DNA of 64,000 nt from an uncultured Acidobacteriota bacterium (GCA_963847075.1 CAWJYL010000002.1:663504-727503); one strand, 5' to 3'; shown: positions 8,812 through 60,000, counted from the stretch's first letter. The notes: generated by a model from the letters alone, not told the origin. Made by a program: numbers and translations.

Positions 8812-10047
8812 CTAGCCGCTCCGTCTGATCGCGTGCAACCCTGCAAGCGCGAGAGCCAGCCCGAGTACCACCAAGAGGTTCGTCGAAAGGGTAGGTACCA
8901 CCGCCTGCGATCCCGGCCCGGGCGTCGGCGTCGCCCCCGGCGGCGGTGTGGACGTGACGGTCGGAGTCGGTGTCCCCGTTGGTCCAACCGCCGGACCAAG
9001 GTCCGTCACGACGACGTCGTTGCCGGTGCCACCCAGGTAGGTGATCTGGTAGCTCCGCCCATTTTGAACGAACGTGGCACCCTCCGACAGCCCGGAGAAG
9101 GTCCCGGTGACCGCGCCGCCGCCCGTGTCGTTGACGATCGTGAACGCGTTGCCGGTGGAGGAGGTGAAACCCCAGGCAAGCACGAGCGTCGCTCCGCCCA
9201 GACTCACGCTGCCGGATGCATTCACCTGGCCGTAATTGCTGGCGCTGTACATGGCCATGAAGAGCGTCGAGGCCGACTGCAGCGTCAAATCCGTGACGTT
9301 GCCGATCTGGCTCGTACCACCGCCCTCGCATCCCACGGTCCCGCCGCTGGCGGTGACCGGACCCGTCGATGCGCCGTTGGCGAACTGGAGAAGACCGCCG
9401 CTCACGGTCACGGCGCTCGCCGAAGCCAGGCTGGAACCCGCCAGGACAAAGTCTCCGGCGGTAATGTCGGTCGGTCCCGTGTACGTGCACGACGCGACGA
9501 TGAACACGACCCCGAGACCGGAGGAGGTCACACCGCCGGTCCCCGAGATCACGCCGTTCTGATTGATGACGCTGCCGCCTGCCGAATTGAACGTCAGCGT
9601 GAAGGCTCCGAGACTTACACCGCCGGAAATGATGAGACGGTCGACCGCGCTGGGGATCGAGCAGGAAAACGTCTGCGACGCTGTGAGCGTGACTCCCAGC
9701 TGGATGGTGTCGGTGCCCGCAGTGTTGGTGGCGCTGATCCCCGCCACCAACTGAATGGCGTTCCCCGAGAGCGTGTAGCCGCCGCTCGAGCCCGTGAAGC
9801 TGATCGTGTTGAAGGACGTGTTCGCGGCGAGGTCATTGCTGGGGGACAGGCGAGGGGTCCCCCCGGGGAACACCAGGTCATCACCCGCGCTCGGCGCCGT
9901 TCCTCCCCAGTTGGCTGCCGTGCTCCAGTTGTCGTCCGCGCCGCCCCCCGTCCAAGTCCTGGTGGCGGCCTGGGCTGCCGTCGTCGGCACCAGGATTCCG
10001 AAGAACACCAACCCAAGAAACAGGCGAGTACGCCTCGGCACGCGCAT
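8812..10047 (-). CDS. secreted beta-helix protein with autotransporter-associated beta-strand repeats and an IPTL-CTERM-like C-terminal sorting tail
   Basis: A signal peptide is followed by TWTGGGADDNWSTAANWGG..P..D.L.F repeats and a Pro/Thr-rich linker. The tail ...VVPTLSTNLLVVLGLALALAGLHAIRRSG is a motif + TM + basic-tail arrangement. Confidence 0.7.
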   Translation of the reverse strand: MRVPRRTRLFLGLVFFGILVPTTAAQAATRTWTGGGADDNWSTAANWGGTAPSAGDDLVFPGGTPRLSPSNDLAANTSFNTISFTGSSGGYTLSGNAIQLVAGISATNTAGTDTIQLGVTLTASQTFSCSIPSAVDRLIISGGVSLGAFTLTFNSAGGSVINQNGVISGTGGVTSSGLGVVFIVASCTYTGPTDITAGDFVLAGSSLASASAVTVSGGLLQFANGASTGPVTASGGTVGCEGGGTSQIGNVTDLTLQSASTLFMAMYSASNYGQVNASGSVSLGGATLVLAWGFTSSTGNAFTIVNDTGGGAVTGTFSGLSEGATFVQNGRSYQITYLGGTGNDVVVTDLGPAVGPTGTPTPTVTSTPPPGATPTPGPGSQAVVPTLSTNLLVVLGLALALAGLHAIRRSG

Positions 10048-10307: not shown

Positions 10308-12185
10308 ATGACGTCCTCGCGATGGCTAAGGCTCTCTCTCACGGTGCTCACGGCTGGAGTTTCAGCTTGGGTCAACGCTGCTACCGGCTACATCCAGATT
10401 AACCTGGTGTCCGACATTCCGCTCGTCGCGGCCCATACGGACTCCAACCTGGTAAATCCCTGGGGAATGGCGTCCAGCGCAACGTCCCCGATCTGGGTTT
10501 CCGACAACCGCACGGGCGTTGCTACTCTCTACAACGGCTCTGGCATCGCGCTCGGCCTCGTAGTCTCGATTCCGAAGCCCGGGGGCGGTGCTTCGCCGGG
10601 CGCGCCAACCGGGATCGTTTTCAACTCGACGAGCGACTTCTCTTCCGACCGCTTCATCTTCGCGACGGAAGACGGAACGATCGCCGGATGGAGTGGCGGA
10701 ACGACCGCATCCCTCGAGGTCGACGACTCGGGCTCCGGCGCGGTCTACAAGGGCATCGCCCTCGGCAACAACGGGACGGCCAACTTTCTCTATGCAACTG
10801 ACTTTCATAACGGCGCCATCAGCGTCTTCGACAAAAACTTCACGCCCGTAACGCTCAGCGGCAGCTTTACCGATCCAAATCTTCCCGCTGGTTTTGCTCC
10901 CTTTGGGATTCAGAACATCGGCGGCATCCTGATCGTGACGTACGCCAAGCAGGACGCCGCCAAGCACGACGACGTTCCGGGCGCCGGCAACGGTTATGTC
11001 GACGAGTTCGACATGAACGGTAATTTTCTGAAGCGTCTCATCTCCGCCGGGGTGTTGAACTCACCATGGGGACTGGCGAAGGCGCCGGCTGGCTTCGGCG
11101 ACTTGAGCGGGGATCTGCTCGTCGGGAATTTCGGCGACGGCAGGATCAACACCTTCGACCCCTCGACGGGAGCGTTCCTCGATACTCTGAACGACAGTTT
11201 GGGAAATCCGATTGTCGTGCAAGGTCTCTGGGGCCTGCTGTTTGGTAACGGCGGTAACGGCGGCGCGCAGACCGAGTGTTTCTTCTCCGCCGGTATCCCT
11301 GGCTCCGGTAGCGTCGAGGACCACGGACTTTTCGGCAAATTCGCGCCGCGGATTCCAGATCTGACGATTGCGAAGACTCATTCGGGCGATTTCGCTCAGG
11401 GCCAGGTCGTGGTGACGTACTCCCTCGAGGTCACCAATAACGGCGGCGTGCCGACTTCCGGCACGATCACGGTCGTCGACACCTTGCCCGCGGGACTGAG
11501 CGCCACAGCCATGACAGGCTCCGGCTGGTCGTGCAATGTGGGAACGCTGACCTGCACCCGGTCGGACGCGCTCGGCGTCGGAGCGAGCTATCCCCCGATC
11601 ACGCTCACCGTCAACGTCGACCCGCAGGCCCCCGCGAACCTGACCAACACGGCGACGGTCAGCGGCGGAGGCGAAACCTTCACCACCAACGACACGGCCA
11701 CGGACCTGACCGCAGTGACACCGCCGATTCCCGACCTGACGATCGCGAAGACGCATTCGGGCGATTTGGCTCGGGGCCAGGTCGGGGCGTACTCCCTCGT
11801 CGTCACCAACAACGGTGCCTTGCCGAGTTCCGGCACAGTCACGGTCGTCGACATCTTGCCCGCGGGCTTGACCGCCACAGCGATGGCGGGCGCCGGCTGG
11901 TCGTGCAACGTGGGAACGCTGACCTGCACCCGGTCGGACGCGCTCGGCGTCGGAGCGAGCTATCCCCCGATCACGCTCACCGTCAACGTCGACCCGCAGG
12001 CCCCCGCGAGCCTGACCAACACGGCGACGGTCAGCGGCGGAGGCCAAACCTACACCGCCAACGACACCGCCGACGATCCGACGAGCGTGCTTACCTCCCT
12101 CCCGATCCCGACACTGCAACGGCCTCTTCTTGTTCTCTTGGGAATGCTCCTGGCGGCGACGGGCATCATCTTGCTTCGCCGCTGA
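10308..12185 (+). CDS. secreted DUF11 (conserved repeat domain) protein with an IPTL-CTERM-like tail
   Basis: It has a signal peptide, two 125-aa DUF11 repeats (LP.GL..TAM.G.GWSCNVGTLTCTRSD), and a C-terminal LPIPTLQRPLLVLLGMLLAATGIILLRR. Confidence 0.8.
   Translation: MTSSRWLRLSLTVLTAGVSAWVNAATGYIQINLVSDIPLVAAHTDSNLVNPWGMASSATSPIWVSDNRTGVATLYNGSGIALGLVVSIPKPGGGASPGAPTGIVFNSTSDFSSDRFIFATEDGTIAGWSGGTTASLEVDDSGSGAVYKGIALGNNGTANFLYATDFHNGAISVFDKNFTPVTLSGSFTDPNLPAGFAPFGIQNIGGILIVTYAKQDAAKHDDVPGAGNGYVDEFDMNGNFLKRLISAGVLNSPWGLAKAPAGFGDLSGDLLVGNFGDGRINTFDPSTGAFLDTLNDSLGNPIVVQGLWGLLFGNGGNGGAQTECFFSAGIPGSGSVEDHGLFGKFAPRIPDLTIAKTHSGDFAQGQVVVTYSLEVTNNGGVPTSGTITVVDTLPAGLSATAMTGSGWSCNVGTLTCTRSDALGVGASYPPITLTVNVDPQAPANLTNTATVSGGGETFTTNDTATDLTAVTPPIPDLTIAKTHSGDLARGQVGAYSLVVTNNGALPSSGTVTVVDILPAGLTATAMAGAGWSCNVGTLTCTRSDALGVGASYPPITLTVNVDPQAPASLTNTATVSGGGQTYTANDTADDPTSVLTSLPIPTLQRPLLVLLGMLLAATGIILLRR
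11351..12100 (+). repeat. intragenic tandem duplication, 2 x 375 bp (DUF11 modules)
   Basis: The two copies are about 90% identical overall, with a stretch of about 110 nt that is 100% identical. Confidence 0.85.
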
Positions 12186-12197
12186 GCTGCTGGACCG

Positions 12198-12310
12198 GCT
12201 GGCCGGCTGCCTGAGCTCTTGGGACGTCGCGAGATCTGATCGCCCAGAGCTGTCCGTCCCGAATCACTTCCGACCGGCGACGAGCCCTTGAAACCTCGGG
12301 TTCTTTGCGC
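12198..12310 (+). repeat. att-like repeat D: copy of the distal part of unit A (1125-1262)
   Basis: ggccggctgcctg...gtcgcgagatctgatcgccc...atcacttccgaccggcgacgagcccttgaaacctcgggttctttgc. Confidence 0.65.
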
Positions 12311-12361
12311 AGCGGGCCGAAGGGTCGATCTCGAGCCAGCCGGGCGAGAGGCAGTACGGGA

Positions 12362-12610
12362 TCAGCGAGCCGCGATCGGCCGCCCGCGCCAGGATGGGCT
12401 TCCCCACTCCGCGGCCTCGAGACGTTCCCATCTGCCATCCTGGTACCGCGAGACTTCGACGATCGAGCCGGGGGCGGGTCGTACGGCTTCGCACCGTGGG
12501 CACCGGAACTTGTACTTGCTGATGCCCCGGTTTGAGACAGAGTTCCACTGGACGCGGAGGGCGGTGCCGCAGACGCATTTCACGTCGGTGAGACGAATCC
12601 CCTGTTTCAA
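12362..12610 (-). CDS. possible small zinc-ribbon protein (TTG start)
   Basis: It contains C-x-C ... CPRC, with GGAGG just upstream of the TTG. It overlaps an alternative frame; support is weak. Confidence 0.25.
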   Translation of the reverse strand: MKQGIRLTDVKCVCGTALRVQWNSVSNRGISKYKFRCPRCEAVRPAPGSIVEVSRYQDGRWERLEAAEWGSPSWRGRPIAAR

Positions 12611-12721
12611 GAGCCTCCATTATACCTGTCCTTCGGTACAGGTAGGAAGGGCCTGTCGGCTCAATCGGGTCCGGCTGTCGGCGGCCCAGGCGGAGGCGAC
12701 GAGGTTAGCCCCCCCGGCGCG

Positions 12722-12813
12722 GGGGCCTTCAAATTCCTGCACCGTCACCACATTTCGACCAACTGAGGCCTTCGAGGGCCTGATGTGTGCCCGAAACCCC
12801 CGACTGTCCGCGG
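12722..12813 (+). repeat. att-like repeat C: copy of the tRNA-Met T-arm and acceptor 3' half plus downstream sequence
   Basis: gggggccttcaaattcctgcaccgtcaccacatttcgaccaac... corresponds to 1068-1160. Confidence 0.7.
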
Positions 12814-12885
12814 ACCGGTTTCGTCCGACGTTCTCACCGATCCGCCATTGAGGGTCGCACTCTTGAGAGGTCTATCGGCAGGCGC

Positions 12886-43069: not shown

Positions 43070-44118
43070 GCCGAAGGGGGCCGCGCGCGCTCGCGTGCTT
43101 CCTGCGAGGGCTCAAGCTCTCTCTGTCCAAACCATACCTCGCCGTCGCCCTGTGGCTCATCCAGCTCCTGCTCGCGGCGACCCTGATCCTCCCCATCAGC
43201 AACACCCTGCATTCGCTGCTCGACCGCTCTCCCGCCGCCGACCGGATGGTGGCCAACCCCGACTACGGCTGGTGGGAGACTCTCCGTCGCGTGCATCCCG
43301 ACGTCCTCGGGAATTTTCCCGAGATTGCCACGGGCCTGCTATCCACCGACGGCATTCGCTGGTCCGAGCTGCCCGGCATGCGGGGGGTCGGCGCGACGGC
43401 GTTCTCCCTCGCGCTTCTCGCGATGGTCGTCCACGCCTTCGCACTCGGCGGAACGCTCGGGGTGCTGCGCGAGCCGTCGAGCTCGCTCGTGACCTTCGGC
43501 CGGGAGGGGATGCGGCGCATGCCCGCATTCCTCCTCTTCACCCTGGCGGCCTTCGCAGCGGCGTTCGCCTCGTACCGGTGGATCTACGTCGAGGCGGGCG
43601 AGGCCCTGCGGGATCGCGTGCGGGAACTGCACACCGAGCAGGCGGCCCTCGCCGTCACGGGGCTGCGTCTGGCCGTCCTGCTGTTCGCGCTGGCGGTGAT
43701 CAAGCTGCTCGCCGACTCGGTGCGCACCGTCTGGGTCGCGCGGCCGGACCTTCCACCCGTGTCGCGTTTCTTCTTCGGCGTCGGGGGTGCGGTCGCGCGG
43801 CCGCTGCGCCTCTTTGCGATCCTCGGCATGTACCTCGTACTGACGGCCGCCCTCTACGTCATCTGGCTCTTGCTCGACCCGTCCGCCGGAGGCGAGGCCC
43901 GCTTCGCGCTCGCGCCGCTCATCCTGACGCAGCAGGTCTTCGTCTTCGTCCGGCTGCTGATCAAGATCGGGTACTACGCCGGTATCTCGGAGGCGCTGAC
44001 GCGCCAGCGCTCGCCCGAGTACTCATACGTGGCCGGAGAGACGACGGCGACCCGGTCTTCCCTCGCTCCGAAACTAGCGCCGACCGCCGCGGACGAAGCC
44101 CCTCTCGATCGCGCGTAG
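43063..44118 (+). CDS. polytopic membrane protein, operonic with the M1 peptidase
   Basis: Its start overlaps the peptidase stop by 7 nt. It has multiple hydrophobic helices. Confidence 0.55.
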
Positions 44119-45129
44119 GGCGCCGTCGAAACGCACGCGGTAGACGAAGGGCTGCCGGCGGATGCCATCCGCCCCGCCCGGCTCCCACGGACCCGTGAAC
44201 CACGGCAGGAAGCGCAGGTCCTGCACGATGACCGTCGCGCCCCCGTCGCCCGCCGGATACACCGTTTCGAGCGGGAATCGCGCGAAGGCGAGATAGACGC
44301 CGACGTCGGGAAGCGCCCGAGCCGTCTCGAGCACCGGGGAGTCCGGGGGTCGGTCGTAGCGCCGAATCACCGCCCGCCCGGGCGGCGGGTAGTAGTCCGA
44401 GAGGCTCTTCAGGACTTCGCTCCATTTCTGCGGCGGACGCGGGTCGCCCGCGCCCCGGGCGAAAGGACCGATGTCGAAGAACGCGACATGGATCTCCCGG
44501 GGGAGTTCGGAGAGCCCGAGCCAACGGAACGGCGACAGGAACTGCGGCAGCACCGCCACCTTCGAGCCGGGAGGCGGGTTGTCCATGCGCTTCCAGGCTT
44601 CGAGCGCGCGGGCGTGGAGGACCGCACACGTCGCGACATAGGCCCCGAGCAAGACCGCGCCCGCGACCGCGATGCGTCGCCCGCGCTCCCGGAACACCAG
44701 TGCGAGAACGAGGGTCGCGAGCGAGATTCCGGTGAAGAAGGGGTCCAGGATGAACACCCAGTCGAGCGAGTACCGCTGCCGGGAAAGAGGCGTCCAGAAC
44801 ATCGTGCCGAAGCTCGTGATCCAGTCGAACACGATGTGCGTCGCCAGGCCGATGCCCGAGAAGAGCCAGAGCGTCGTCAGGCGCGCGCGCCGCAGGAATA
44901 GCCGGGCCACCAGGGCGATGCCGAGGGCCAGAAACGGCAGGACGAGAAACGAGTGCGTCCAGCTACGATGGTCGCGCAGGTACTCGAGCCGGCTCGAGAA
45001 AAAGATGAAATCGAGATCGGGAACCATGGCCGCGATCGCCCCGACCCAAAACGCCGCCTTCGCGCCCGGCCGATCGGCGAAAGGGCGCGTCAGAACGGAT
45101 CCGGCGATTCCATGGGTGATCGTGTCCAC
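44074..45129 (-). CDS. membrane-bound metal-dependent hydrolase (YdjM / DUF457 family) with C-terminal extension
   Basis: MDTITHGIAGSVL...HRSWTHSFL is the DUF457 signature. Confidence 0.65.
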   Translation of the reverse strand: MDTITHGIAGSVLTRPFADRPGAKAAFWVGAIAAMVPDLDFIFFSSRLEYLRDHRSWTHSFLVLPFLALGIALVARLFLRRARLTTLWLFSGIGLATHIVFDWITSFGTMFWTPLSRQRYSLDWVFILDPFFTGISLATLVLALVFRERGRRIAVAGAVLLGAYVATCAVLHARALEAWKRMDNPPPGSKVAVLPQFLSPFRWLGLSELPREIHVAFFDIGPFARGAGDPRPPQKWSEVLKSLSDYYPPPGRAVIRRYDRPPDSPVLETARALPDVGVYLAFARFPLETVYPAGDGGATVIVQDLRFLPWFTGPWEPGGADGIRRQPFVYRVRFDGALRAIERGFVRGGRR

Positions 45130-45186: not shown

Positions 45187-45906
45187 ATGGCGGATCAGTC
45201 GCTCGGTGGAAAGGTCGCGCTCCTGACCGGGGCGTCCTCGGGCCTCGGGCGGGCGTTCGCCCATGCCCTGGCCCGTGCGGGCGCCACGGTCTTCCTCGTC
45301 GCCCGGCGCGAGGACAAGCTCCGCGACGTCGTTCGCGAGATTACCGAAGCCGGGGGTGATGCCGCATACCATGTCGCCGACCTGCGCGTCGTGCCTGCGC
45401 TCTACGACCTCGTGGACGTCGTGCTGTCGCGCCACAAGCGCCTCGACGTGCTGATCAACAATGCCGGTCTCGGATACCGCTCGCCGCTCTCCGAGACGAA
45501 GCGGTCGGAGATCGCCGCGATGCTCGAGACCGACCTCGCGGCCGCGATCTACCTCACACAGGCCTGTCTGCACGCGTTGCTTCGCAGTGCGCCATCCGAC
45601 GTCGTCAACATCTCCTCGATCGCCGGCCTCGAAGGGTTCGCGGAAGGAACAGTCTACTGCGCGGCCAAGGCGGGGCTCGTCGGCTTTACCCGAGCCCTCG
45701 CCGCGGAGCTCAAACCCGCGAACATCCGGGTGACCGCGATCTGCCCCGGCTCCGTCGATACCGATTTCTTCGACCGATACCGGCCGACGCTCGAGCGGAC
45801 GCAGATGCTGCAGACCGACGACGTGGTCCGCGCCCTCCTCTACGTGCTCGCGTCGCCGCCCGATGTCGTCCACGGCGAGATCGTTCTGCGCCCGCGCGTC
45901 GTGTGA
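45187..45906 (+). CDS. SDR-family oxidoreductase
   Basis: It has TGASSGLG plus a catalytic YxxxK region. Confidence 0.85.
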   Translation: MADQSLGGKVALLTGASSGLGRAFAHALARAGATVFLVARREDKLRDVVREITEAGGDAAYHVADLRVVPALYDLVDVVLSRHKRLDVLINNAGLGYRSPLSETKRSEIAAMLETDLAAAIYLTQACLHALLRSAPSDVVNISSIAGLEGFAEGTVYCAAKAGLVGFTRALAAELKPANIRVTAICPGSVDTDFFDRYRPTLERTQMLQTDDVVRALLYVLASPPDVVHGEIVLRPRVV

Positions 45907-45941
45907 CCCCGATCTCCAACCGTATAATCCCGGACGCGCAA

Positions 45942-46628
45942 ATGCCCTCCATCCTTCTCGTCGACGATCAGGGGCTCTTTCGGGGAGCGGCCGAAGAGGT
46001 CCTCGCGCGGACCGGCTGCCAGACGCTGACCGCATCGGGGGGAACCGAGGCTCTCGACGTCGCACGCCGCGAGAAGCCGCAACTCGTCGTGGTCAACGCC
46101 GGCATGACCCGCATGACGGGCCTCGATCTGTGCCGGGTCCTCAAGGCCGATCCGGCGTTCGCAAAGACGCCGATCGTCGTGGTCGGGCCGCCGGGGGCCG
46201 AAGAGGCCGCACTCCGCGTCGGGGCGGACGCCACCCTGTCCCTTCCGCTCGACCCGGAATCGTTCTTTGCGGTCGTGCGCCGTTTCCTGCAGGTCCTTCC
46301 TCGCGAGGAGGCGCGGTCCGCGGTGGAATGGTCGATCACCTTCTGGCGGGACGGGATGCAGCACGCAGGCACGATCCGCGACCTCTCGCGCGGAGGCTTC
46401 TTCGTGAAGACGCCGGTCCGGCAGCCGATCGGCGCCCGTCTCGAAGTCTCCTTCGACGTGCCGGTGGAGCGGGGCGTCCGAACGGTGGTCGCGGAAGCCA
46501 TCGTCGTGCGCCTCGGCCGGGACAACGACCGGGGGCTCGGCTGCCGCTTCTTCCAGCTCTCCGCGGGCTCGCGCGGCCACCTCGAGGAGTGCCTGCGCAT
46601 CCTCGCTCTCGGCGACGTCCCGGCATAG
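45942..46628 (+). CDS. response-regulator-like protein: degenerate receiver domain fused to a PilZ (c-di-GMP-binding) domain
   Basis: The receiver has LLVDDQ, but the phospho-acceptor position reads VVVNAGM (Asn in place of Asp). The PilZ motifs are REEAR and RDLSRGGF. Confidence 0.65.
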   Translation: MPSILLVDDQGLFRGAAEEVLARTGCQTLTASGGTEALDVARREKPQLVVVNAGMTRMTGLDLCRVLKADPAFAKTPIVVVGPPGAEEAALRVGADATLSLPLDPESFFAVVRRFLQVLPREEARSAVEWSITFWRDGMQHAGTIRDLSRGGFFVKTPVRQPIGARLEVSFDVPVERGVRTVVAEAIVVRLGRDNDRGLGCRFFQLSAGSRGHLEECLRILALGDVPA

Positions 46629-46684
46629 CCGTAGCGGCCGTGCGGCTCGCGCCCTGCCGAATCAAGTCCGGGATCCTTCGCGAC

Positions 46685-46722
46685 GCTCAGGATGACGAGC
46701 TTCGTCGGCCCTCATCCTGAGG
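46685..46722. terminator. hairpin between the convergent REC-PilZ and dCMP deaminase genes (possible bidirectional terminator)
   Basis: The stem is gctcaggatga / tcatcctgagg. Confidence 0.35.
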
Positions 46723-46749: not shown

Positions 46750-47187
46750 CTACTTCGCGGCGGTGGCCAGGTCGATGAGCTCGATGCCGGCGTCGCGGGC
46801 GACCTGGATCGAGCGCTCGTCGCGGTAGAACTCTCCGTAATACACGCGCACGAGGCTCGAGTTCGCGATGAGCTTGAAGCAGGGCCAACATGGGCTGGCC
46901 GTCGTGTAGATCTCGGCGCCCCCGATCGACACGCCGTTCTTTGCGGCCTGGATGATCGCGTTGGCCTCGGCGTGGACCGTGGCCACGCAGTGCCCGTCCT
47001 CCATGAGGCAGCCGACATCCGAGCAGTGCGGAAGGCCGCGGATCGAGCCGTTGTAGCCGGTCGAAAGGATCGTACGGTCGCGCACGATGACGGCGCCGAC
47101 GTGTTTGCGGGGGCACGTCGAGCGCGTCGACACCTGCCGCGCGATGTTCATGAAGTACGTGTGCCAGTCGACGCGCCGCTCGTTCAT
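46750..47187 (-). CDS. dCMP deaminase (CMP/dCMP-type zinc deaminase)
   Basis: It has HAEANAI and SPCWPCFKLI. Confidence 0.85.
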   Translation of the reverse strand: MNERRVDWHTYFMNIARQVSTRSTCPRKHVGAVIVRDRTILSTGYNGSIRGLPHCSDVGCLMEDGHCVATVHAEANAIIQAAKNGVSIGGAEIYTTASPCWPCFKLIANSSLVRVYYGEFYRDERSIQVARDAGIELIDLATAAK

Positions 47188-47277: not shown

Positions 47278-48504
47278 GTGAATCGAGGTCGCCGCGTCGT
47301 CATCACGGGAATGGGAGCCGTCACGGCGGTCGGGCGGAGCCTGGAGGAGTCCTGGCGCAACATGCTCTCCGGCGTGTGCGGAATCCGGCCGCTCTCGCTC
47401 TTCGACCCGGCCGCGTATCGCACGCAGACCGCCGCCGAGGTCACCGACATCCCGGACGGCTTCCTCGCTCCGGCCGAGCGCCGGCGCATGTCCCGTGCCG
47501 ATCGCATGGGAGTGGCGGCCGCCCGCGAGGCCATCGAGGCAGCCGGCCTCGACATCGGGCGCGAGGACCCGACCCGCCTGGGCGTGATCCTCGGGGGCGG
47601 GACGTCGGGGCTCATCGACTCGGAGGCGTTCTTCGAGCTCTATCTCCGGGGAAAGAAGGCGCGGCCCTCCCGAGTTCTCAACCATCTCCCCGACTCGATT
47701 ACCGACCGGGTCGCGCAGCGCTTCGGCCTGGAGGGCATCAAGTCCACGATCACGACCGCCTGCTCCTCCTCGGCCAACGCCATGGGGTACGCCTTCGATG
47801 CCATCGCGGCGGGCCTCGCGGACGTCGTCGTGACCGGCGGATCGGACGTCCTCGCGCGGCTGACTTACGGCGGCTTCAACTCGCTGCGCTCGGTCGACCC
47901 GGATCCCTGCCGGCCCTTCGACCGGGAGCGCAAGGGGCTCTCGATCGGTGAGGCGGCCGGCATCCTCGTGTTCGAGGAGGCCGGGCGGGCTCGCCGCCGG
48001 GGGGCGGCGATCGTGGCCGAGTTTCGCGGCTACGGAGTGACCTCGGACGCGTACCACATGACGGCTCCCGATCCTTCGGGATCGGCCGGTGGCCGCACGA
48101 TTGCCGCCGCGCTCGTCAATGCCGGCGTCAACGCCGGCGACGTGGACTACGTCAACGCGCACGGCACCGCGACGCCGCAGAACGACTCCGCCGAAACCGC
48201 CGCGCTCAAGGCCGCGCTCGGCGCCCGCGCGCGCGCGATTCCGGTCTCCTCGATCAAATCCATGATCGGGCACTGTCTCTGTTCCTCGGGAGCGATCGAG
48301 GCGGTGGCGACCGCACTGACGGTGCGAGACGGAAAGGTTCCGCCCACGATCCACTACGAGCATCCGGATCCCGCCTGCGACCTCGACTACGTGCCCAACG
48401 CGGCGCGCGACCTCCCGGTCGGCGTGGCCCTCTCGAATTCGTTCGCCTTCGGCGGCAACAGCTCAGTGGTCGTGCTCTCGCGGTACGACGCCTCACGGGG
48501 TTGA
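47278..48504 (+). CDS. fabF: beta-ketoacyl-ACP synthase II-like ketosynthase
   Basis: The active site is TACSSS, with NAHGTATPQND and GHCLCSSG. It has a GTG start. Confidence 0.85.
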   Translation: MNRGRRVVITGMGAVTAVGRSLEESWRNMLSGVCGIRPLSLFDPAAYRTQTAAEVTDIPDGFLAPAERRRMSRADRMGVAAAREAIEAAGLDIGREDPTRLGVILGGGTSGLIDSEAFFELYLRGKKARPSRVLNHLPDSITDRVAQRFGLEGIKSTITTACSSSANAMGYAFDAIAAGLADVVVTGGSDVLARLTYGGFNSLRSVDPDPCRPFDRERKGLSIGEAAGILVFEEAGRARRRGAAIVAEFRGYGVTSDAYHMTAPDPSGSAGGRTIAAALVNAGVNAGDVDYVNAHGTATPQNDSAETAALKAALGARARAIPVSSIKSMIGHCLCSSGAIEAVATALTVRDGKVPPTIHYEHPDPACDLDYVPNAARDLPVGVALSNSFAFGGNSSVVVLSRYDASRG

Positions 48505-49613
48505 TGGCGTCGCGCGGGGTCGTCACGGGGACCGGCGCCGTCTCGGCCCTGGGACGCACGGCATCGGACTTCTACCGGAGACTGATCTCCGGAGAAACCG
48601 CGATCCGGCCCTTTGCGCCGCAGGAACGGGGCGACCTGCACGCCACGCACGTCGCGCGCTACGACGGATTCTCGCCGCAGCCCGAGATTCCCGCGATGAA
48701 GGCGCGGCGGCTCGATCGCGGCAGCCAGTTCGCTCTCATCGCATGCATGCAGGCCGTGGCCGAGGCGGGCTATCGAATCGAGGAGTCGCCCGAGGCGATT
48801 GGCATCGCGATGGGCACCGGCTCGGCAGGCGCCGGGGCGCTGACGGAATTCCTGCGCGTGCTCATCCTCGAGTCCCCCGAAGCCGCTCCCCCGTTCCACT
48901 TTCCGAATACGGTCGCCAATGCGCCGGCCTCGCAGGCTTCGATCGAGCTCAAGATCTACGGGCCCAACGTCACGATCACACAGAAGGACCCGTCCGCGTT
49001 GAACGCCCTTCTCTACGCGACCCTCGCGCTTTCCTCGGGTCGGGCCCGGGCGATGATCGCCGGTGCGGTCGACGAGTGGAACTTCTACTACGCCATGGGA
49101 TTCGACCGGGTCGGCGCCTTGCGCGGCGAGAAACGGGACTCCGGGATCGTCCAGGGCGAGGGGGCCTTCGTCATCCTGCTCGAGACGGAGGAGAGCGCCC
49201 ACTCGCGCGGCGCCCGGTCGCTTGCGCGCCTGGCAGGCATCGCCACGGCGGGCGTCGCGTCGGAGCCGTACCGATTCGCCCCGGACCGCGGAGCGATCGC
49301 CCGCGCGATTCGCGGCGCGCTCGACGACGCCGGCGTGCGGCCGGCCGACATCGGTCTCTGGCTCTCCTCGCGCGACGGCGTGGCGGAGATGGACCGGGCC
49401 GAGGCCGAGGTCATGCACTCGATCTTCGGGCAGACGCTGCCCCGTGAGATTGCGATCAAGGACGCGATCGGGGAGATGGCGGCCGCCGGCGGCGCCCAGC
49501 TCGTCGCCGCCACCTGCGCCCTCGCGGAGGGCGGGACGGCCCGGCGCGCTCTGGTCAATTCCTTCGGCGCGGGGGGCAACTTTCTCTGCGCCGTTTTCGA
49601 GTCGGCCGCGTGA
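48501..49613 (+). CDS. ketosynthase-like protein lacking catalytic residues (Cys->Gln; chain-length-factor / KS-beta-like)
   Basis: The Cys position reads VTITQKDPSA instead of TACxxS, and both catalytic His positions are substituted. The ATGA start overlaps the fabF-like stop. Confidence 0.8.
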   Translation: MMASRGVVTGTGAVSALGRTASDFYRRLISGETAIRPFAPQERGDLHATHVARYDGFSPQPEIPAMKARRLDRGSQFALIACMQAVAEAGYRIEESPEAIGIAMGTGSAGAGALTEFLRVLILESPEAAPPFHFPNTVANAPASQASIELKIYGPNVTITQKDPSALNALLYATLALSSGRARAMIAGAVDEWNFYYAMGFDRVGALRGEKRDSGIVQGEGAFVILLETEESAHSRGARSLARLAGIATAGVASEPYRFAPDRGAIARAIRGALDDAGVRPADIGLWLSSRDGVAEMDRAEAEVMHSIFGQTLPREIAIKDAIGEMAAAGGAQLVAATCALAEGGTARRALVNSFGAGGNFLCAVFESAA

Positions 49614-50080
49614 TGGGGGCGAGAATCCGGCCGGCCGATCCGCTGCAGGGCCTGACCATCGCGATCCCGGTGCGGTTTGCCGAGTGTGATCCGTACGGCG
49701 TCGTGTGGCACGGGCACTACGTCCTCTATCTCGAGCAGGCGCGCGAGGCTCTGACCGGAAAGTTCGGCTTCACCGCGGCCCGCGCGCTCGAAATGGGCTA
49801 CCGGGTGCCGGTGACACGGATGGAGCTGAAGTACCGGGCGCCGGCCCGGCCGGACCAAACGATCCATGTGACGGCCCGGCTGCAGGCGCCCGCGGTGGCA
49901 CGGTTCGTGATGGATTACGAGATCCGCGCCGACGGCGGGGAGCTGCTCGCCTCGGCGGTGACGGAGCAGGTCGTGATCAACGCCGCGGGTGAGCTTCTCC
50001 TGACCTTGCCGGCCGGCCTGCGGGCCCTCTGCGCGTCGATCCTGGAGTTCCAGGAGTCGCTCGGCGGCGCCGTTCGATGA
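49613..50080 (+). CDS. hotdog-fold acyl-CoA/ACP thioesterase (4HBT / YbgC-like)
   Basis: It has FAECDPYGVVWHGHYVLYLEQA. Its TGATG start overlaps the previous stop. Confidence 0.75.
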   Translation: MGARIRPADPLQGLTIAIPVRFAECDPYGVVWHGHYVLYLEQAREALTGKFGFTAARALEMGYRVPVTRMELKYRAPARPDQTIHVTARLQAPAVARFVMDYEIRADGGELLASAVTEQVVINAAGELLLTLPAGLRALCASILEFQESLGGAVR

Positions 50081-50634
50081 CGGCACCTCGCGCCTCTGCA
50101 GCCTCGAACCGCCGATCCGTCTTCTTCCTCCTCCGCTTCGTGGCGCTGCTCGTCGCCTTCTACTCCGTCGTCGCGTCCCGCCCGGTCAACGACGCCGTCA
50201 TCGTGCCTTTCACGGCGGGCGTGGCTCGCGCCTCCGCGGCGGTTCTCACCGCCTTCGGCGAAAAGGTCTCGGTGGCCGGGACGGAGATTCGATCCAGCCT
50301 CTTCACCGTCAACATCGAGAACGGCTGCAACGGCGTCGAGACGGCGCTGCTCTTCGGGTCGGCGGTAATTGCATTTCCCGCGCCATGGCCCTGGCGGCTC
50401 GGCGGACTTGCGGCGGGCTTTGCCGCGATCCAGGCGGTCAACCTCGTGCGCGTGGTGTCGCTCTTCTGGATCGGCGCCCATCGTCCCAGGTTCTTCTCGT
50501 CCTCGCACACGGTCCTCTGGCAGTCGATCGTCGTGCTGTGCGGCGTGCTGCTCTTTCTCGCCTGGGCGTCGCGGGTGCAGAAAGCCGGCGCCGCCGAGAG
50601 CGCCCGGGACCATGGCTCGCGCGAAAAGAGCTGA
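50077..50634 (+). CDS. polytopic membrane protein with exosortase-like Cys...Arg motif (tentative)
   Basis: It has about 5 TM helices, an NGCNG motif, and AVNLVRVV about 39 residues later. Its ATGA start overlaps the thioesterase stop. Confidence 0.55.
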   Translation: MTAPRASAASNRRSVFFLLRFVALLVAFYSVVASRPVNDAVIVPFTAGVARASAAVLTAFGEKVSVAGTEIRSSLFTVNIENGCNGVETALLFGSAVIAFPAPWPWRLGGLAAGFAAIQAVNLVRVVSLFWIGAHRPRFFSSSHTVLWQSIVVLCGVLLFLAWASRVQKAGAAESARDHGSREKS

Positions 50635-51214
50635 GCCGCCCGCCCGGGCGTTCCGGAAGGTGGATGGGCGCGCCGCGCTGCGTCTGGCCGCCGGATTCGC
50701 CGCCGGCCTGGCGTTCTGGTTCGCCTTCTCCGCGCCCTACGAGAGAGGTCTCGCGTCGGCGGCGGAGGTCCTGCTGCGGCTCTTCGAGAGCCCGGCGGTC
50801 ACGACGCTCTCGGCGTCGGACGGAGAGATTTGGGTCGAACGGTCGGACTTCCCGCCCGCTTCCCCCCGCCCCGGCCTGCCCGCGGCCGACATCGACTTCA
50901 ACTTCGCGCAGCTCACTGCACTCTTCGCGCTGACACCCCGCCCTCTCGGCGCGCGGCGCTTCGGACGATTCTGGCTCGCCGCGGCCGCGCTCGCCGTGAT
51001 CCACGTTCTGGCGCTCGTCTGCCAGGTCGAGTCGCTCTACGCCACGAGCCTCGGTCCGTGGAGCGAGGCGCACTATGGTCCGATCGCCCGAAACCTCTGG
51101 GCGGCGGCGTTCCATTTCTACCTGGTCGCTGGCCGTTTCGCGGCGCCGTTTGCGCTGTGGTGGGGGCTGAGCAATTTCGAACTTCGAAATTCGAAATTCG
51201 AATTTGGGCGCTAG
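50612..51214 (+). CDS. membrane protein, last gene of the KS operon
   Basis: It overlaps the preceding gene by 23 nt and has 3-4 hydrophobic helices. Confidence 0.5.
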   Translation: MARAKRAEPPARAFRKVDGRAALRLAAGFAAGLAFWFAFSAPYERGLASAAEVLLRLFESPAVTTLSASDGEIWVERSDFPPASPRPGLPAADIDFNFAQLTALFALTPRPLGARRFGRFWLAAAALAVIHVLALVCQVESLYATSLGPWSEAHYGPIARNLWAAAFHFYLVAGRFAAPFALWWGLSNFELRNSKFEFGR

Positions 51215-52296
51215 TGCCGTCCCCGCTCTCGCCTCAAGTACCGATAGTCCGGAATCGCGAACTCCTTCAACTTTGCGATCAGCGACCCGCGGGAAATGTT
51301 GAGCACCTGGGCGCCGCGGCTCTGGTTGCCTTCCACGCGACGCATTGCGCGATCGATGACCTCGCGCTCCACGGTCTCGACAATCTTCTTCAGGTCGTCC
51401 GTCGAACGCAGCACGGTCTCCGCCGGACCTGCCTCCGGAGCGGCCGTCACCGGAACCTCCTGCGTCACGCGGACCGCCGGCTCGGCCGCCTCGGGTTCCG
51501 CGCCCATACGGGCGAACGCGATTCCGGCCACCTGGACGAGCTCCTCGAGAAAAAGCACCGCTCGCGCCGCCAGGCGCGGCGACTCGCGCAGCACGATTCC
51601 GGTCCGCCCCGCGCCTTCGGGCGCCGGCTCGACGAGAAGCGTCAGGACTCCCGTGACCGTCTCCGCGCGAGCCAGGCGCTCGCCGCCGCGGATCTCCTGG
51701 ATCATCCTCGGTGGAAGCATCGGGTTCTCGCGAAACGTCGACGCGATCGGCCGGAACCCCGAGGACGCCGAGAACTCGCCGACTGCCCACTCGGAGGGCG
51801 ATAGCTCGCGGTCGAGAAAGTCGGTCAGCGCGGTGGCCAGGTCCTCCAGCGACCGGGCTTCCCGGCAAAGACGGTTCGCGGCCAGCCTCAGCCCGCGATA
51901 TTCGACCTCGGTAACCGGAAGCGCCGGGGCCGACGCCGTGGAAGGCGCCGACTCGGCCAGGTCGTCCTGCGGGAACTCGCCGACCGGCGTGGGCCGCATC
52001 GAGGGGCCGACGTCGACGACGGTAATCGTCGCCTCTCCGATGGTGATCCGGTCGCCGGCCGCGATGGCTCCTCCGAAGAACTCGCGGCCGTTGACCTGAA
52101 CGGCACCGATGCCCCGGAAGAGGTCGAGGTGGTACGCGCCTTCCCTTTCGAGCAGACGAAGGTGACGGCCATACACGCCCCGGGCGCGCACCACGACCTC
52201 GTTGCCCGAGGACGCGCCGACCGTGGCGCTGTCTCCGGCCACGCGATGCATTTCGGCGCCGGTTCCCGGGCGCCTGCGGACTTCGAGTGTCAACAT
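51211..52296 (-). CDS. FHA-domain protein with C-terminal Fis-type HTH (no AAA+ domain)
   Basis: The N-terminal FHA domain reads GNEVVVRARGVYGRHLRLL...GAVQVNGREF...GDRITIG. The C-terminus has QSRGAQVLNISRGSLIAKLKEF. Confidence 0.75.
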   Translation of the reverse strand: MLTLEVRRRPGTGAEMHRVAGDSATVGASSGNEVVVRARGVYGRHLRLLEREGAYHLDLFRGIGAVQVNGREFFGGAIAAGDRITIGEATITVVDVGPSMRPTPVGEFPQDDLAESAPSTASAPALPVTEVEYRGLRLAANRLCREARSLEDLATALTDFLDRELSPSEWAVGEFSASSGFRPIASTFRENPMLPPRMIQEIRGGERLARAETVTGVLTLLVEPAPEGAGRTGIVLRESPRLAARAVLFLEELVQVAGIAFARMGAEPEAAEPAVRVTQEVPVTAAPEAGPAETVLRSTDDLKKIVETVEREVIDRAMRRVEGNQSRGAQVLNISRGSLIAKLKEFAIPDYRYLRRERGRH

Positions 52297-57826: not shown

Positions 57827-58392
57827 TCGCGTCAATCCCTTAGCGAATCGGTGGACTTACCCGGTTCCGCCCGATGCTTTGACGGTGCGCTTGACGGGGA
57901 AAGATTCGGTTGGAAAGCCATGCGAGGAACAGTCGATATCGGCTAATGGCGGAGAGGCCGAAGAACGGGCTTCATCCCTCTTCATCCCTTCTTCATCCTT
58001 AGGATTCCGGGATTCGTCCTTGTCGGAAGCAGCTGTCGGAGTTCCGTTGTCCAAGCCACCTTCGACTTTATCCACGAGCCGAAGCGTGCCGGACCTTGAC
58101 AAGGACTGCACCGGAGGAGAAAACTGCCGGGCGCTCGGTGGTCTTGCCCGCCGCAGCTTTTCGCATCGGCGGGCGCCTCGCATCAGAGACACGACGCTTC
58201 AGCGGGGAGTCAGTGAACCGCAAGACAAATTCTCGATCGTTTTTGAGCCTTCTGAACTCGAGCCGCTTGGCTCCGTTCTCATTGCCGAAGAAGAATGTGG
58301 ACGGTAGCCAGCCTGCCAATTTCCGATCGAAGGGTTGGGGTCTCGGTGAAACCCCATTTGATTCAAATATAAGGTGTCTAAAGGAGGACTCC

Positions 58393-60000
58393 ATGAAAGG
58401 TGGATACTTTCGGATTCTCAGGATACTGGCGGTTGTTTTGCTCGCGTCGCTGGCTCGACCCGGCCTTGGCCGCGCACAATCCTTCCGGCTTAAACCCCTA
58501 CCGCCGAAGAAGAACACGACCGCCGCAGTGAAACATACGAATGCTCTCGCTCTCGCCGCCCCGCTGGCGCCGTGGCAATTGCTGGTGAACCAACCTCCGG
58601 TAGTTGATTATTTCGATTGCGGCCCGGGTAGCCCGGTGTTGCTGACGGACGGCACCGTGATGCTGCAGGACCACGGCTGCCAGGATTGGTGGAAGCTCAC
58701 CCCCGACCAGTTCGGCAGCTACGTGAACGGAACCTGGACTCAGTTAGCCTCGCTGTCCGGCGGCTACAGCCCGCTGTATCACTCGACGGCCGTTCTCCCC
58801 GACGGCCGGGTCATCATCGAGGGCGGCGAATACAACTTCCTGCAACCGCGGTGGACCGCCCTGGGCGCAATTTATGACCCATTGGCCGATATGTGGACGT
58901 CGGTCGCTCCTCCTCCGTTCTTCGGGGGCTTCGGACCCTTTGCGCAGACGATCGGCGATGCGCAGGCCATCGTTCTTTCCGACGGAACCTACATGCAGGC
59001 CAATTGCTGCACCCGAGACGAGGCTCTGCTCGATCCCAAGACTCTCACCTGGACGCCCACCGGCGCGGGCAAGTTCGATATCCACGATGAAGAAGGGTGG
59101 ACGCTGTTGCCCAACAAGAAGGTGCTGACAGTCGATGCCTACGTGGGTCAATACGACCCGACGGGCACGAACTTTGAGCTGTACAACCCCGCGTCGGGCA
59201 AGTGGACGAGTCCCGGCGGAGGCACGCGTGTGCAGCTCTGGGACTCCGCGGCGGATTGCGGCGGAGCGAATGCCGAGTCGGCTGAGGTTGGCCCCGCGGT
59301 CTTGATGCCCGACGGGAGCGTCTTCGCCACGGGAGCCAACAGCTGCGGCGCTGCTCACACCGCGATTTACAAGGGAAGCTGGAAGGCGGGTCCGGATTTC
59401 CCCGAGAACCTCGGCATCGCCGATGGTCCCGCCGCGCTCGAGCCCAACGGGAAGGTTCTGATGATGGCGAGCCCAACGGTCTTCAACGCGCCCTCGACCT
59501 TCTTCGAGTGGGACGGGAATAACCTGACGACGGCTCCACCCGCTCCGAACGCTGACAACGACTCATCGTTCTACGGCAACATGCTGGTCCTTCCCACGGG
59601 ACAGATTCTGTTCACCGACTTCTTCTTTGTCTCGGTTTACAACCCAACGGGAACCTACAATCCGGCTTGGCAGCCGAGCATCCAGAAAGCCCCTAAGACG
59701 GTGAGTCCGGGAGGGTCGTACGTTATCTCCGGACATCTTTTCAACGGAATGTCGCAGGGAGCGGCTTACGGGGACGATTCTCAAGGCGCCACGAATTACC
59801 CGATCGTCCGCATCACAAACAACGCAACCGGCCACGTTTTCTACAGCCGGACGCACGACCACAGCAGCATGGCCGTCGCATTCAACGGCGTCGTGTCGAC
59901 CCAATTCGATGTGCCGGCTAACCAGGAGACGGGCCCGAGCAAGCTCGAGGTCGTCACTAACGGCATTCCTTCGAAGCCGTTCGACGTCAACGTGCAGTAG
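58393..60000 (+). CDS. secreted kelch-type beta-propeller protein with C-terminal Ig-like domain (galactose/glyoxal-oxidase-like architecture)
   Basis: AAGGAGG lies 6 nt before the ATG. It has a signal peptide, repeated LPDGxV / LxDGT / LMPDGSV blade motifs, and a C-terminal SKLEVVTNGIPSKPFDVNV. Confidence 0.55.
   Translation: MKGGYFRILRILAVVLLASLARPGLGRAQSFRLKPLPPKKNTTAAVKHTNALALAAPLAPWQLLVNQPPVVDYFDCGPGSPVLLTDGTVMLQDHGCQDWWKLTPDQFGSYVNGTWTQLASLSGGYSPLYHSTAVLPDGRVIIEGGEYNFLQPRWTALGAIYDPLADMWTSVAPPPFFGGFGPFAQTIGDAQAIVLSDGTYMQANCCTRDEALLDPKTLTWTPTGAGKFDIHDEEGWTLLPNKKVLTVDAYVGQYDPTGTNFELYNPASGKWTSPGGGTRVQLWDSAADCGGANAESAEVGPAVLMPDGSVFATGANSCGAAHTAIYKGSWKAGPDFPENLGIADGPAALEPNGKVLMMASPTVFNAPSTFFEWDGNNLTTAPPAPNADNDSSFYGNMLVLPTGQILFTDFFFVSVYNPTGTYNPAWQPSIQKAPKTVSPGGSYVISGHLFNGMSQGAAYGDDSQGATNYPIVRITNNATGHVFYSRTHDHSSMAVAFNGVVSTQFDVPANQETGPSKLEVVTNGIPSKPFDVNVQ

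Follow-up and report, generated by a model that had tools for sequence, protein, structure and literature searches.

We analyzed a window of 64,000 nucleotides (nt) of DNA from an uncultured Acidobacteriota bacterium (GCA_963847075.1, CAWJYL010000002.1:663504-727503) and focused on five co-directional open reading frames (ORFs) that span positions 47278-51214 of its plus strand. Homologs of the window proteins are found in Thermoanaerobaculia (Acidobacteriota) genomes assembled from metagenomes, which places the source lineage in this group. The five ORFs encode two ketosynthase (KS) proteins, KS1 and KS2, followed by a thioesterase (TE), exosortase H (XrtH) and a further membrane protein (gene 5):

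47278..48504, plus strand: KS1, active FabF-type beta-ketoacyl-acyl carrier protein (ACP) synthase, 408 amino acids (aa)
48504..49613, plus strand: KS2, catalytically dead KS-like partner, 369 aa from the ATG at 48504
49613..50080, plus strand: TE (gene 3), YbgC/4HBT-fold (hotdog) thioesterase, 155 aa
50077..50634, plus strand: XrtH (gene 4), exosortase H by its match to TIGR04177, 185 aa
50612..51214, plus strand: gene 5, putative XrtH-associated membrane protein by its position after XrtH, 200 aa

Read directly from the sequence, the KS1/KS2 junction is TGATG (stop 48502-48504, ATG 48504), the KS2/TE junction is again TGATG (stop 49611-49613, ATG 49613), the TE/XrtH junction is ATGA (ATG 50077, stop 50078-50080), and XrtH and gene 5 overlap by 23 nt (ATG 50612, stop 50632-50634). 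Alternatively, KS2 could start at a TTG at 48501. Because these same-strand ORFs overlap in their start and stop codons, the initial annotation of this DNA was correct in describing a five-gene translationally coupled unit. A scan for consensus promoters and terminators gave no hit beyond the level expected by chance, either within the operon or on its flanks.

KS1 displays the two-domain KS fold (Pfam PF00109 and PF02801) and is 39% identical to FabF from Escherichia coli. In a MAFFT alignment, C162, H295, K327 and H332 of KS1 occupy the columns of FabF C163, H303, K335 and H340. Compared with structures in the PDB, KS1 matched Listeria FabF with 352 bits and 9s5h_B with 333 bits. Against the NCBIfam model for FabF itself, TIGR03150, KS1 scored 410.5 bits (E=6e-123), which is under the equivalog cut-off of 493.75, whereas the broader NF005589 (beta-ketoacyl-ACP synthase II subfamily) gave 410.2 bits, over its cut-off of 387. 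The KS1 orthologs likewise remained under the fabF equivalog cut-off, at 391-423 bits. These scores point in two directions for an account in which KS1 and KS2 are the main heterodimeric FabF of the lineage, the TE is a general YbgC-type enzyme and the adjacency to XrtH is accidental: clearing the subfamily cut-off favors that account, and the shortfall of KS1 and its orthologs against the equivalog speaks against it.

KS2 has the same fold (PF00109 and PF02801), and its register was taken from two independent alignments, one by HMMER to E. coli FabF and one by MAFFT with more than 200 sequences. D162, S289, K319 and E324 stand at the Cys, His, Lys and His columns of FabF, so that the triad is lost and the Lys is kept. 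Additionally, the gatekeeper Phe is replaced by Ala356. The alignment at the site is ungapped and its flanks match (TIT...S..NA); therefore, the register is secure. The initial annotation had described KS1 as FabF-like with an intact Cys-His-His triad and KS2 as having lost all three catalytic residues, and both statements held (C162/H295/H332 in KS1, D162/S289/E324 in KS2). It had further read TITQKDPSA in KS2 as a Cys to Gln replacement exactly as in chain length factors (CLFs), which was mistaken, as the residue at the Cys column is Asp in both alignments and the Gln lies two residues upstream. A Cys retained in KS2 upon proper alignment, which it had named as speaking against its reading, is not seen, Asp162 being there instead.

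Orthologs of KS2 that are 69-93% identical occur in 67 related loci. For the wider family, we ran a full HMMER search against 1.84 billion representative proteins and then read out the catalytic columns of the matches. The nearest relatives are almost all triad-less KS-like proteins or fusions of about 800 aa that join an active KS to a dead one (KS'). At the Cys position these relatives have mostly Glu (26), followed by Phe (14), Asp (13), Ala (11) and Gln (9), while the Lys equivalent to FabF Lys335 is nearly always retained and His340 is replaced by Glu. As read from these columns, a kept Lys together with a His340 to Glu replacement is a recurring signature rather than the outcome of random decay. 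Many of the matches are fusions of about 800 aa in which the first type of KS is intact (C-H-K-H). Such KS-KS' fusions include P0367, P0373 and P0378, and the dead half may be N- or C-terminal, judging by the position of the KS2 match; one fusion of about 800 aa, from Moorella, is named 'beta-ketoacyl synthase chain length factor' by its source. Dead KS partners that have Asp, Glu or Gln in place of the Cys, retain the Lys and carry Glu instead of the second His form a broad family, with many members present as fused KS-KS' proteins.

The gene contexts of these relatives, read within 10-kb flanks only, indicate the kind of pathway to which such pairs belong. The window trio (KS1, KS2 and TE) is orthologous to the copies at loci L081, L082 and L083, with identities of 49-65% for KS1, 37-48% for KS2 and 45-50% for the TE, and the KS1-KS2 pairing is conserved at all three. 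L082, from Acidobacteriota UBA4820, has the order acyltransferase (AT), ketoreductase (KR), ACP, dehydratase (DH), KS, KS' and 4HBT thioesterase. Its ACP belongs to an aryl-polyene (APE)-like family and is accompanied by an atypical DH; it is not acpP, which argues against a housekeeping role for the trio. L085 carries a glycosyltransferase, deacetylase, acyltransferase, ACP, ApeP-like DH, KS, KS', thioesterase, methyltransferase and glycosyltransferases. A full aryl-polyene-like cluster is present at L084, with LolA, a lipid A-type acyltransferase, GT2, an ApeI/ApeP DH, KR, ACP and an AMP-ligase, and at L086 a fused KS-KS' lies with an acyltransferase, KR, ACP, DH, thioesterase and phosphopantetheinyl transferase. 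The ACPs of L082, L084, L085 and L086 are 42-69% identical to one another and 30-35% identical to E. coli AcpP; therefore, they are dedicated carriers and not the housekeeping ACP. That the wider KS2 family is found in specialized lipid clusters again disfavors a main FabF role. Together, the residue pattern and these contexts support KS1 and KS2 as a predicted KS/CLF-type pair rather than two ordinary FabFs, and the contexts of KS2 relatives outside the Thermoanaerobaculia support a putative aryl-polyene-like ancestry.

The third gene matched Pfam 4HBT_2 with 57.4 bits (cut-off 25.5), and the narrower TIGR00051 with 60.1 bits, just under the cut-off of 68.7. YbgC/4HBT hotdog thioesterases share the motif D-x-x-G-x-V-x-H with an N-terminal catalytic Asp. 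The N-terminal motif of the TE reads ECDPYGVVWHGHY, and the orthologs at L081 and L082 share the Asp at the catalytic position. Orthologous TEs come after KS2-type genes in L081, L082 and L085. Neither the 64-kb window nor the 10 kb around the Thermoanaerobaculia trio loci contains an ACP, DH or AT gene or a second KS, and no KR, LolA-like protein or exporter lies beside the KS pair in the same range. With no ACP, KR, DH or AT gene nearby, these functions must therefore come from elsewhere in the genome. The lack of a dedicated ACP, KR or DH in the immediate surroundings is what a main FabF of the lineage would lead one to expect. A short-chain dehydrogenase/reductase upstream (45187-45906) was considered as the ketoreductase and rejected: it is generic, scoring 136.9 bits against a FabG cut-off of 297.75, and it is not in the L081 neighborhood. 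A three-gene minimal version (KS, KS' and TE) exists that has no ACP of its own.

Gene 4 matched TIGR04177 (XrtH) with 121.9 bits, over the cut-off of 86, and its homologs are named 'exosortase H (IPTLxxWG-CTERM-specific)' by their sources. Cys84 (NGCNG), Arg125 (NLVR) and His144 (SHT) are invariant over homologs of 50-100% identity. By family match and conserved residues, gene 4 is exosortase H, a protein-sorting enzyme, and not a generic membrane protein. In the literature, we found nothing on XrtH beyond the family names.

We compared 80 species-level genome loci with an XrtH relative by tblastn, and a gene 5 homolog lies directly after XrtH in all 80. Gene 5 itself has no Pfam or NCBIfam match, including none to NF041730 ('exosortase H-associated membrane protein') even at E<=10. 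Its homologs at L074, L077, L079 and L080, which are 29-37% identical, match NF041730 end to end with 18-22 bits (cut-off 35), and some homologs carry a precomputed PF28117 annotation. Residues that are invariant throughout the family include E59, R77, D79, D93, Y143, S151, Y155 and H168. In the AlphaFold2 (AF2) model of gene 5 (pLDDT, the predicted local distance difference test score, of 83), about four long helices are combined with a small beta sheet. Searches of solved structures with the gene 5 and XrtH models gave generic helical matches only (Z<=8.3), and gene 5 has no fold match in the PDB. In the two models, helices and strands follow one another in the same order and are of roughly equal length. 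The idea that gene 5 is a degenerate XrtH paralog was tried and set aside, with a profile-profile probability of <1%, and remains an idea only.

The two parts of the operon are not always found together. KS1, KS2 and TE lie directly upstream of XrtH in 67 of the 80 loci; in 12, XrtH and its partner occur with no KS or TE gene, and one locus is too short to tell. The 12 trio-less loci adjoin either pyrimidine-synthesis genes and SMC, or uvrA. Conversely, L081, whose KS2 is 48% identical to that of the window, has dCMP (deoxycytidine monophosphate) deaminase, KS1, KS2 and TE in the corresponding neighborhood, followed by regulators and SMC, with neither XrtH nor the partner, and at L083 the KS1-KS2 pair occurs with no TE and no XrtH. 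Since the trio occurs alone (L081) and XrtH with its partner occurs alone (12 loci), these are two separable units. When XrtH and its partner are placed in a tree, L063, L069, L074 and L077-L080, which have no trio, group together as an outgroup clade, and every trio-bearing locus falls within one large clade. A single subclade nested in it (L030, L047 and L052) has moved XrtH and the partner together to adjoin uvrA. Of 64 loci in the fused clade, 49 have TE and XrtH genes that overlap by 4 nt, and in 10 others the two genes are 8 nt apart.

From these observations, we consider it probable that the locus is a composite operon of two modules that also exist apart, an aryl-polyene-like KS1-KS2-TE cassette and an XrtH-partner sorting system. 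The joining would date to the ancestor of a single large Thermoanaerobaculia clade, nearly all members of which have retained it. The distribution of the two units is consistent with a functional link, and equally with a chance adjacency that has been stable within a conserved core neighborhood. In the papers searched, we found no description of the reduced three-gene cassette or of its conserved fusion to exosortase H.

Module A (KS1, KS2 and TE) would be a stripped-down relative of aryl-polyene-like type II polyketide synthase (PKS)/fatty acid synthase cassettes. We envision that KS1 and KS2 form a KS/CLF-like heterodimer in which KS1, as the sole catalytic subunit, would perform Claisen condensations on acyl-ACP, and KS2 would complete the substrate tunnel with its own half and hence influence chain length or the choice of substrate. 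A further role of the pair may be to prime synthesis through decarboxylation of malonyl-ACP, as in the anammox pair amxFabF2/amxFabFmut (discussed below). The hotdog TE would release or edit the acyl product, with ACP, KR, DH and enoyl reductase presumably supplied from elsewhere in the genome. For module B, the known role of the family predicts that XrtH uses its Cys, Arg and His to cleave (I/V)PTL-helix-basic tails of secreted surface proteins and, helped by the partner protein, passes the cleaved proteins to an acceptor.

A different view of the same five genes, put forward in the initial annotation, is that they form a single lipid or polyene tailoring module whose membrane proteins receive or export the product. 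The tight coupling of all five genes and the KS/CLF-like nature of the pair agree with this. Several of its elements were borne out: gene 3 is a 4HBT/YbgC-type thioesterase by its Pfam score, no ACP, ketoreductase or dehydratase is adjacent in the window or in the flanks of the related loci, and the KS plus CLF-like, aryl-polyene-like reading agrees with KS2 relatives that are triad-less and sit in aryl-polyene-like type II clusters. For the two membrane proteins, the sizes of 185 and 200 aa were right, but a role in lipid delivery is not supported, as XrtH and its partner are a protein-sorting pair. Indeed, gene 4 is a genuine exosortase H with the catalytic Cys, Arg and His, gene 5 always travels with XrtH whether or not KS genes are present, and neither membrane protein resembles a lipid transporter or an acyltransferase. 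We therefore regard a single lipid module as highly improbable and continue with the composite operon.

Cognate substrates of XrtH may be encoded in the same genome. A scan for C-terminal tails consisting of the motif, a helix and basic residues yielded two candidates in the window:

10308..12185, plus strand: likely XrtH substrate, secreted protein with a TIGR03118 domain and DUF11 repeats, ending in ...LPIPTLQRPLLVLLGMLLAATGIILLRR
8812..10047, minus strand: likely XrtH substrate, secreted repeat protein, ending in ...AVVPTLSTNLLVVLGLALALAGLHAIRRSG

Both bear an N-terminal signal peptide and an (I/V)PTL-helix-RR tail. The protein at 10308-12185 has two DUF11 repeats, and the TIGR03118 model is named PEPCTERM_chp_1; the protein at 8812-10047 has autotransporter-like repeat sequence and no family match. 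The two genes are divergently arranged, 37 kb from xrtH. The tail of the 8812-10047 protein matched TIGR04174 (IPTL_CTERM) with 15.5 bits (cut-off 20.5) and NF033207 (midcut-by-XrtH) with 19.4 bits, and the tail of the 10308-12185 protein has no match to the IPTL-CTERM model. Additionally, at L077 a 1333-aa choice-of-anchor D protein (10928-14929) with an IPVL-helix-RRA tail is encoded directly after XrtH and the partner, and this looks like a substrate gene within an outgroup sorting locus. An IPTL-CTERM protein is also the S-layer protein of Methylomirabilis (PMC8671808).

Several points weigh against the two-module reading. Of the three tails scored (the two in the window and that of L077), two match the IPTL-CTERM model, both under the cut-off of 20.5, and one has no match at all. 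Gene 5 is assigned as the putative XrtH-associated membrane protein via transitive, sub-threshold matches. The tree of XrtH and the partner is a neighbor-joining tree without support values. Lastly, the best match of KS2 among solved structures is chain C of 9s5h (probably amxFabFmut), with 108.5 bits compared to 107.8 bits for ordinary FabF; chain B ranks among the best matches of KS1. Because KS2 scores alike against the two, the resemblance to the anammox protein is one of kind and implies no close kinship. PDB 9s5h/9s5i is probably the amxFabF2/amxFabFmut structure.

The operon lies between two genes on the opposite strand:

46750..47187, minus strand: dCMP deaminase by its translation, left boundary, divergent from KS1 with a 90-bp spacer
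51211..52296, minus strand: FHA-like and Fis-type helix-turn-helix (HTH) regulator, right boundary (Pfam HTH_8 and Yop-YscD_cpl)

A dCMP deaminase occupies the same position in related loci, and the L081 equivalent matches Pfam dCMP_cyt_deam_1. The regulator is convergent with gene 5, their stop codons overlapping by 4 nt, and this synteny is conserved. The window copy (361 aa) has no sigma-54 AAA+ domain; at the same place, L081 encodes a 635-aa FHA-sigma54 activator-HTH_8 protein (12983-14890) with a histidine kinase alongside, and the window regulator looks like a truncated or remodeled form. Elsewhere, the window carries ordinary chromosomal genes, including SMC, formate-tetrahydrofolate ligase, FtsH, folP, glmM and Ser/Thr kinases, and its G+C content is about 68%, with uniform base composition across the operon region. 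PADLOC defense models gave no match for KS2, TE, XrtH or gene 5.

This setting bears again on whether KS1 and KS2 are simply the main FabF of the lineage, with a general TE beside them and XrtH adjacent by accident. The location among core genes (dCMP deaminase and the ligase, SMC, FtsH, folP and glmM just listed), the uniform composition of the region and the presence of the trio in most of the Thermoanaerobaculia lineages sampled all agree with it. Set against the fabF equivalog scores, the dedicated ACP of the UBA4820 trio and the specialized clusters of the wider KS2 family, we judge this account unlikely.

Other features of the window were recorded in passing. The G+C fraction falls to 0.605 at 58000-60000, compared to about 0.68 elsewhere in the window, and a 634-aa ORF there (58096-60000) has no NCBIfam match. 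Three large paralogous Ser/Thr kinases lie within 22 kb on the minus strand (4771-7368, 12886-15390 and 24045-26777), one of which carries PD40/beta-propeller repeats. The protein at 45863-46720 (plus strand), called a PilZ protein in the initial annotation, has no Pfam or NCBIfam match, and its positional equivalent in L081 has a precomputed PilZ annotation. A YdjM-family membrane hydrolase is encoded at 44074-45129 (minus strand), 2 kb from KS1; one is also found at L081 (2677-3819) and another inside the aryl-polyene-like cluster of L084 (4513-5511), which may be coincidence.

Returning to the composite operon, its co-translation suggests that the acyl product may be used in the envelope process in which XrtH takes part. 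In an integrated pathway of this kind, KS1, KS2 and TE would produce a dedicated acyl chain or lipid, to serve XrtH and its partner as acceptor or anchor precursor in the processing of IPTL-tailed surface proteins. The junction is in its favor: in 59 of 64 loci the TE and XrtH genes either overlap by 4 nt or lie no more than 8 nt apart, even as the proteins have diverged to about 60-70% identity, and the joining has one origin and near-complete retention in a large clade. However, the modules occur apart (the trio alone at L081, XrtH and the partner alone at 12 loci), and the nested subclade moved XrtH and the partner away and left the trio behind. KS2-type trios outside the class adjoin glycosyltransferases or APE-like genes, with an exosortase in none of four contexts. 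Additionally, we know of no chemistry linking a free fatty acid to exosortase transfer, which also counts against it. A precedent exists in archaea, where artA is syntenic with the lipid genes pssA and pssD; following up this synteny revealed that archaeosortase-dependent lipid anchoring needs both (PMC7157517). Given this precedent, a link between the acyl product and XrtH deserves a test. On balance, we regard the integrated pathway as rather doubtful, and its more specific form, in which the acyl chain becomes part of the anchor that receives IPTL-tailed proteins via XrtH and its partner, as improbable.

Each part of the operon is of a known kind. Present in about 67 species-level genomes, this coupled arrangement of XrtH, KS pair and TE is a testable lead in the same way as the archaeal synteny was. 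To our knowledge, the action of exosortases after substrate cleavage is still unknown. If an acyl chain were part of the anchor, the locus would offer a first genetic entry point to the molecules onto which exosortases load their substrates. If the fusion is only a neighborhood effect, this would be an ordinary locus, with a reduced aryl-polyene-like cassette beside a known sorting system.

Comparison with characterized systems places each part of the operon. Aryl-polyene-like cassettes contain an ApeO/ApeC-type KS/CLF, an ApeK-type thioesterase and ApeI/ApeP dehydratases. Comparably, the closest KS2 relatives outside the Thermoanaerobaculia are dead KS partners that adjoin an active KS, a 4HBT thioesterase, an ApeP-like DH and a dedicated ACP. 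Unlike such cassettes, the window has no ACP, DH, KR, AT, LolA, acyltransferase or starter-activating enzyme. Against the solved KS chain 6qsp_A, which we take to be the Ape KS, KS2 scored low (51 bits).

The anammox proteins amxFabF2 and amxFabFmut act together as a KS/CLF-like heterodimer, and decarboxylation of malonyl-ACP and formation of acetoacetyl-ACP require the presence of both (Barends laboratory preprint, bioRxiv 10.64898/2026.05.19.726425). Like KS1 and KS2, they are encoded by adjacent FabF-derived genes, one with the triad intact and the other with all three residues replaced. However, the Cys is replaced by Val or Thr in amxFabFmut and by Asp in KS2, and the gene order is reversed, with the dead copy upstream in the anammox pair and downstream in the window. 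The anammox pair is also part of a ladderane cluster with radical SAM (S-adenosylmethionine) enzymes and its own ACP, whereas the window pair is followed only by the TE and then the exosortase.

Type II aromatic PKSs, such as that for actinorhodin (1tqy), likewise have an active KS (KS-alpha) and an inactive KS-fold partner (the CLF) side by side. The hallmark Gln of CLFs at the Cys position is Asp in KS2, and a Gln is found in one related lineage only (L083/P0366). KS2 scored 67.6 bits against the actinorhodin CLF (1tqy_B) and 45 bits against the Iga12-type 6kxd_B, compared to about 108 bits against FabF, and no cyclases or aromatases are present. Because KS2 has no Gln at the Cys column and is less similar to the actinorhodin CLF than to FabF, membership of KS2 among true type II PKS CLFs is not supported.

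The second module resembles the exosortase H/IPTL-CTERM system (TIGR04177, TIGR04174 and NF041730), in which, as in the window, XrtH is accompanied by a partner whose gene always comes directly after it and by proteins with (I/V)PTL-helix-basic tails. Compared to that system, the window tails lack the 'WG' of IPTLxxWG and the window partner is too divergent for a direct match to NF041730. Lastly, the archaeosortase ArtA with PssA and PssD offers a parallel for the operon as a whole. PssA and PssD are responsible for the lipid head group (archaetidylserine and archaetidylethanolamine), and dependence on them was demonstrated by genetics, whereas the window genes encode chain-building enzymes and are known from sequence alone. 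In both cases, the gene of a sorting enzyme from this superfamily shares synteny with genes for lipid synthesis.

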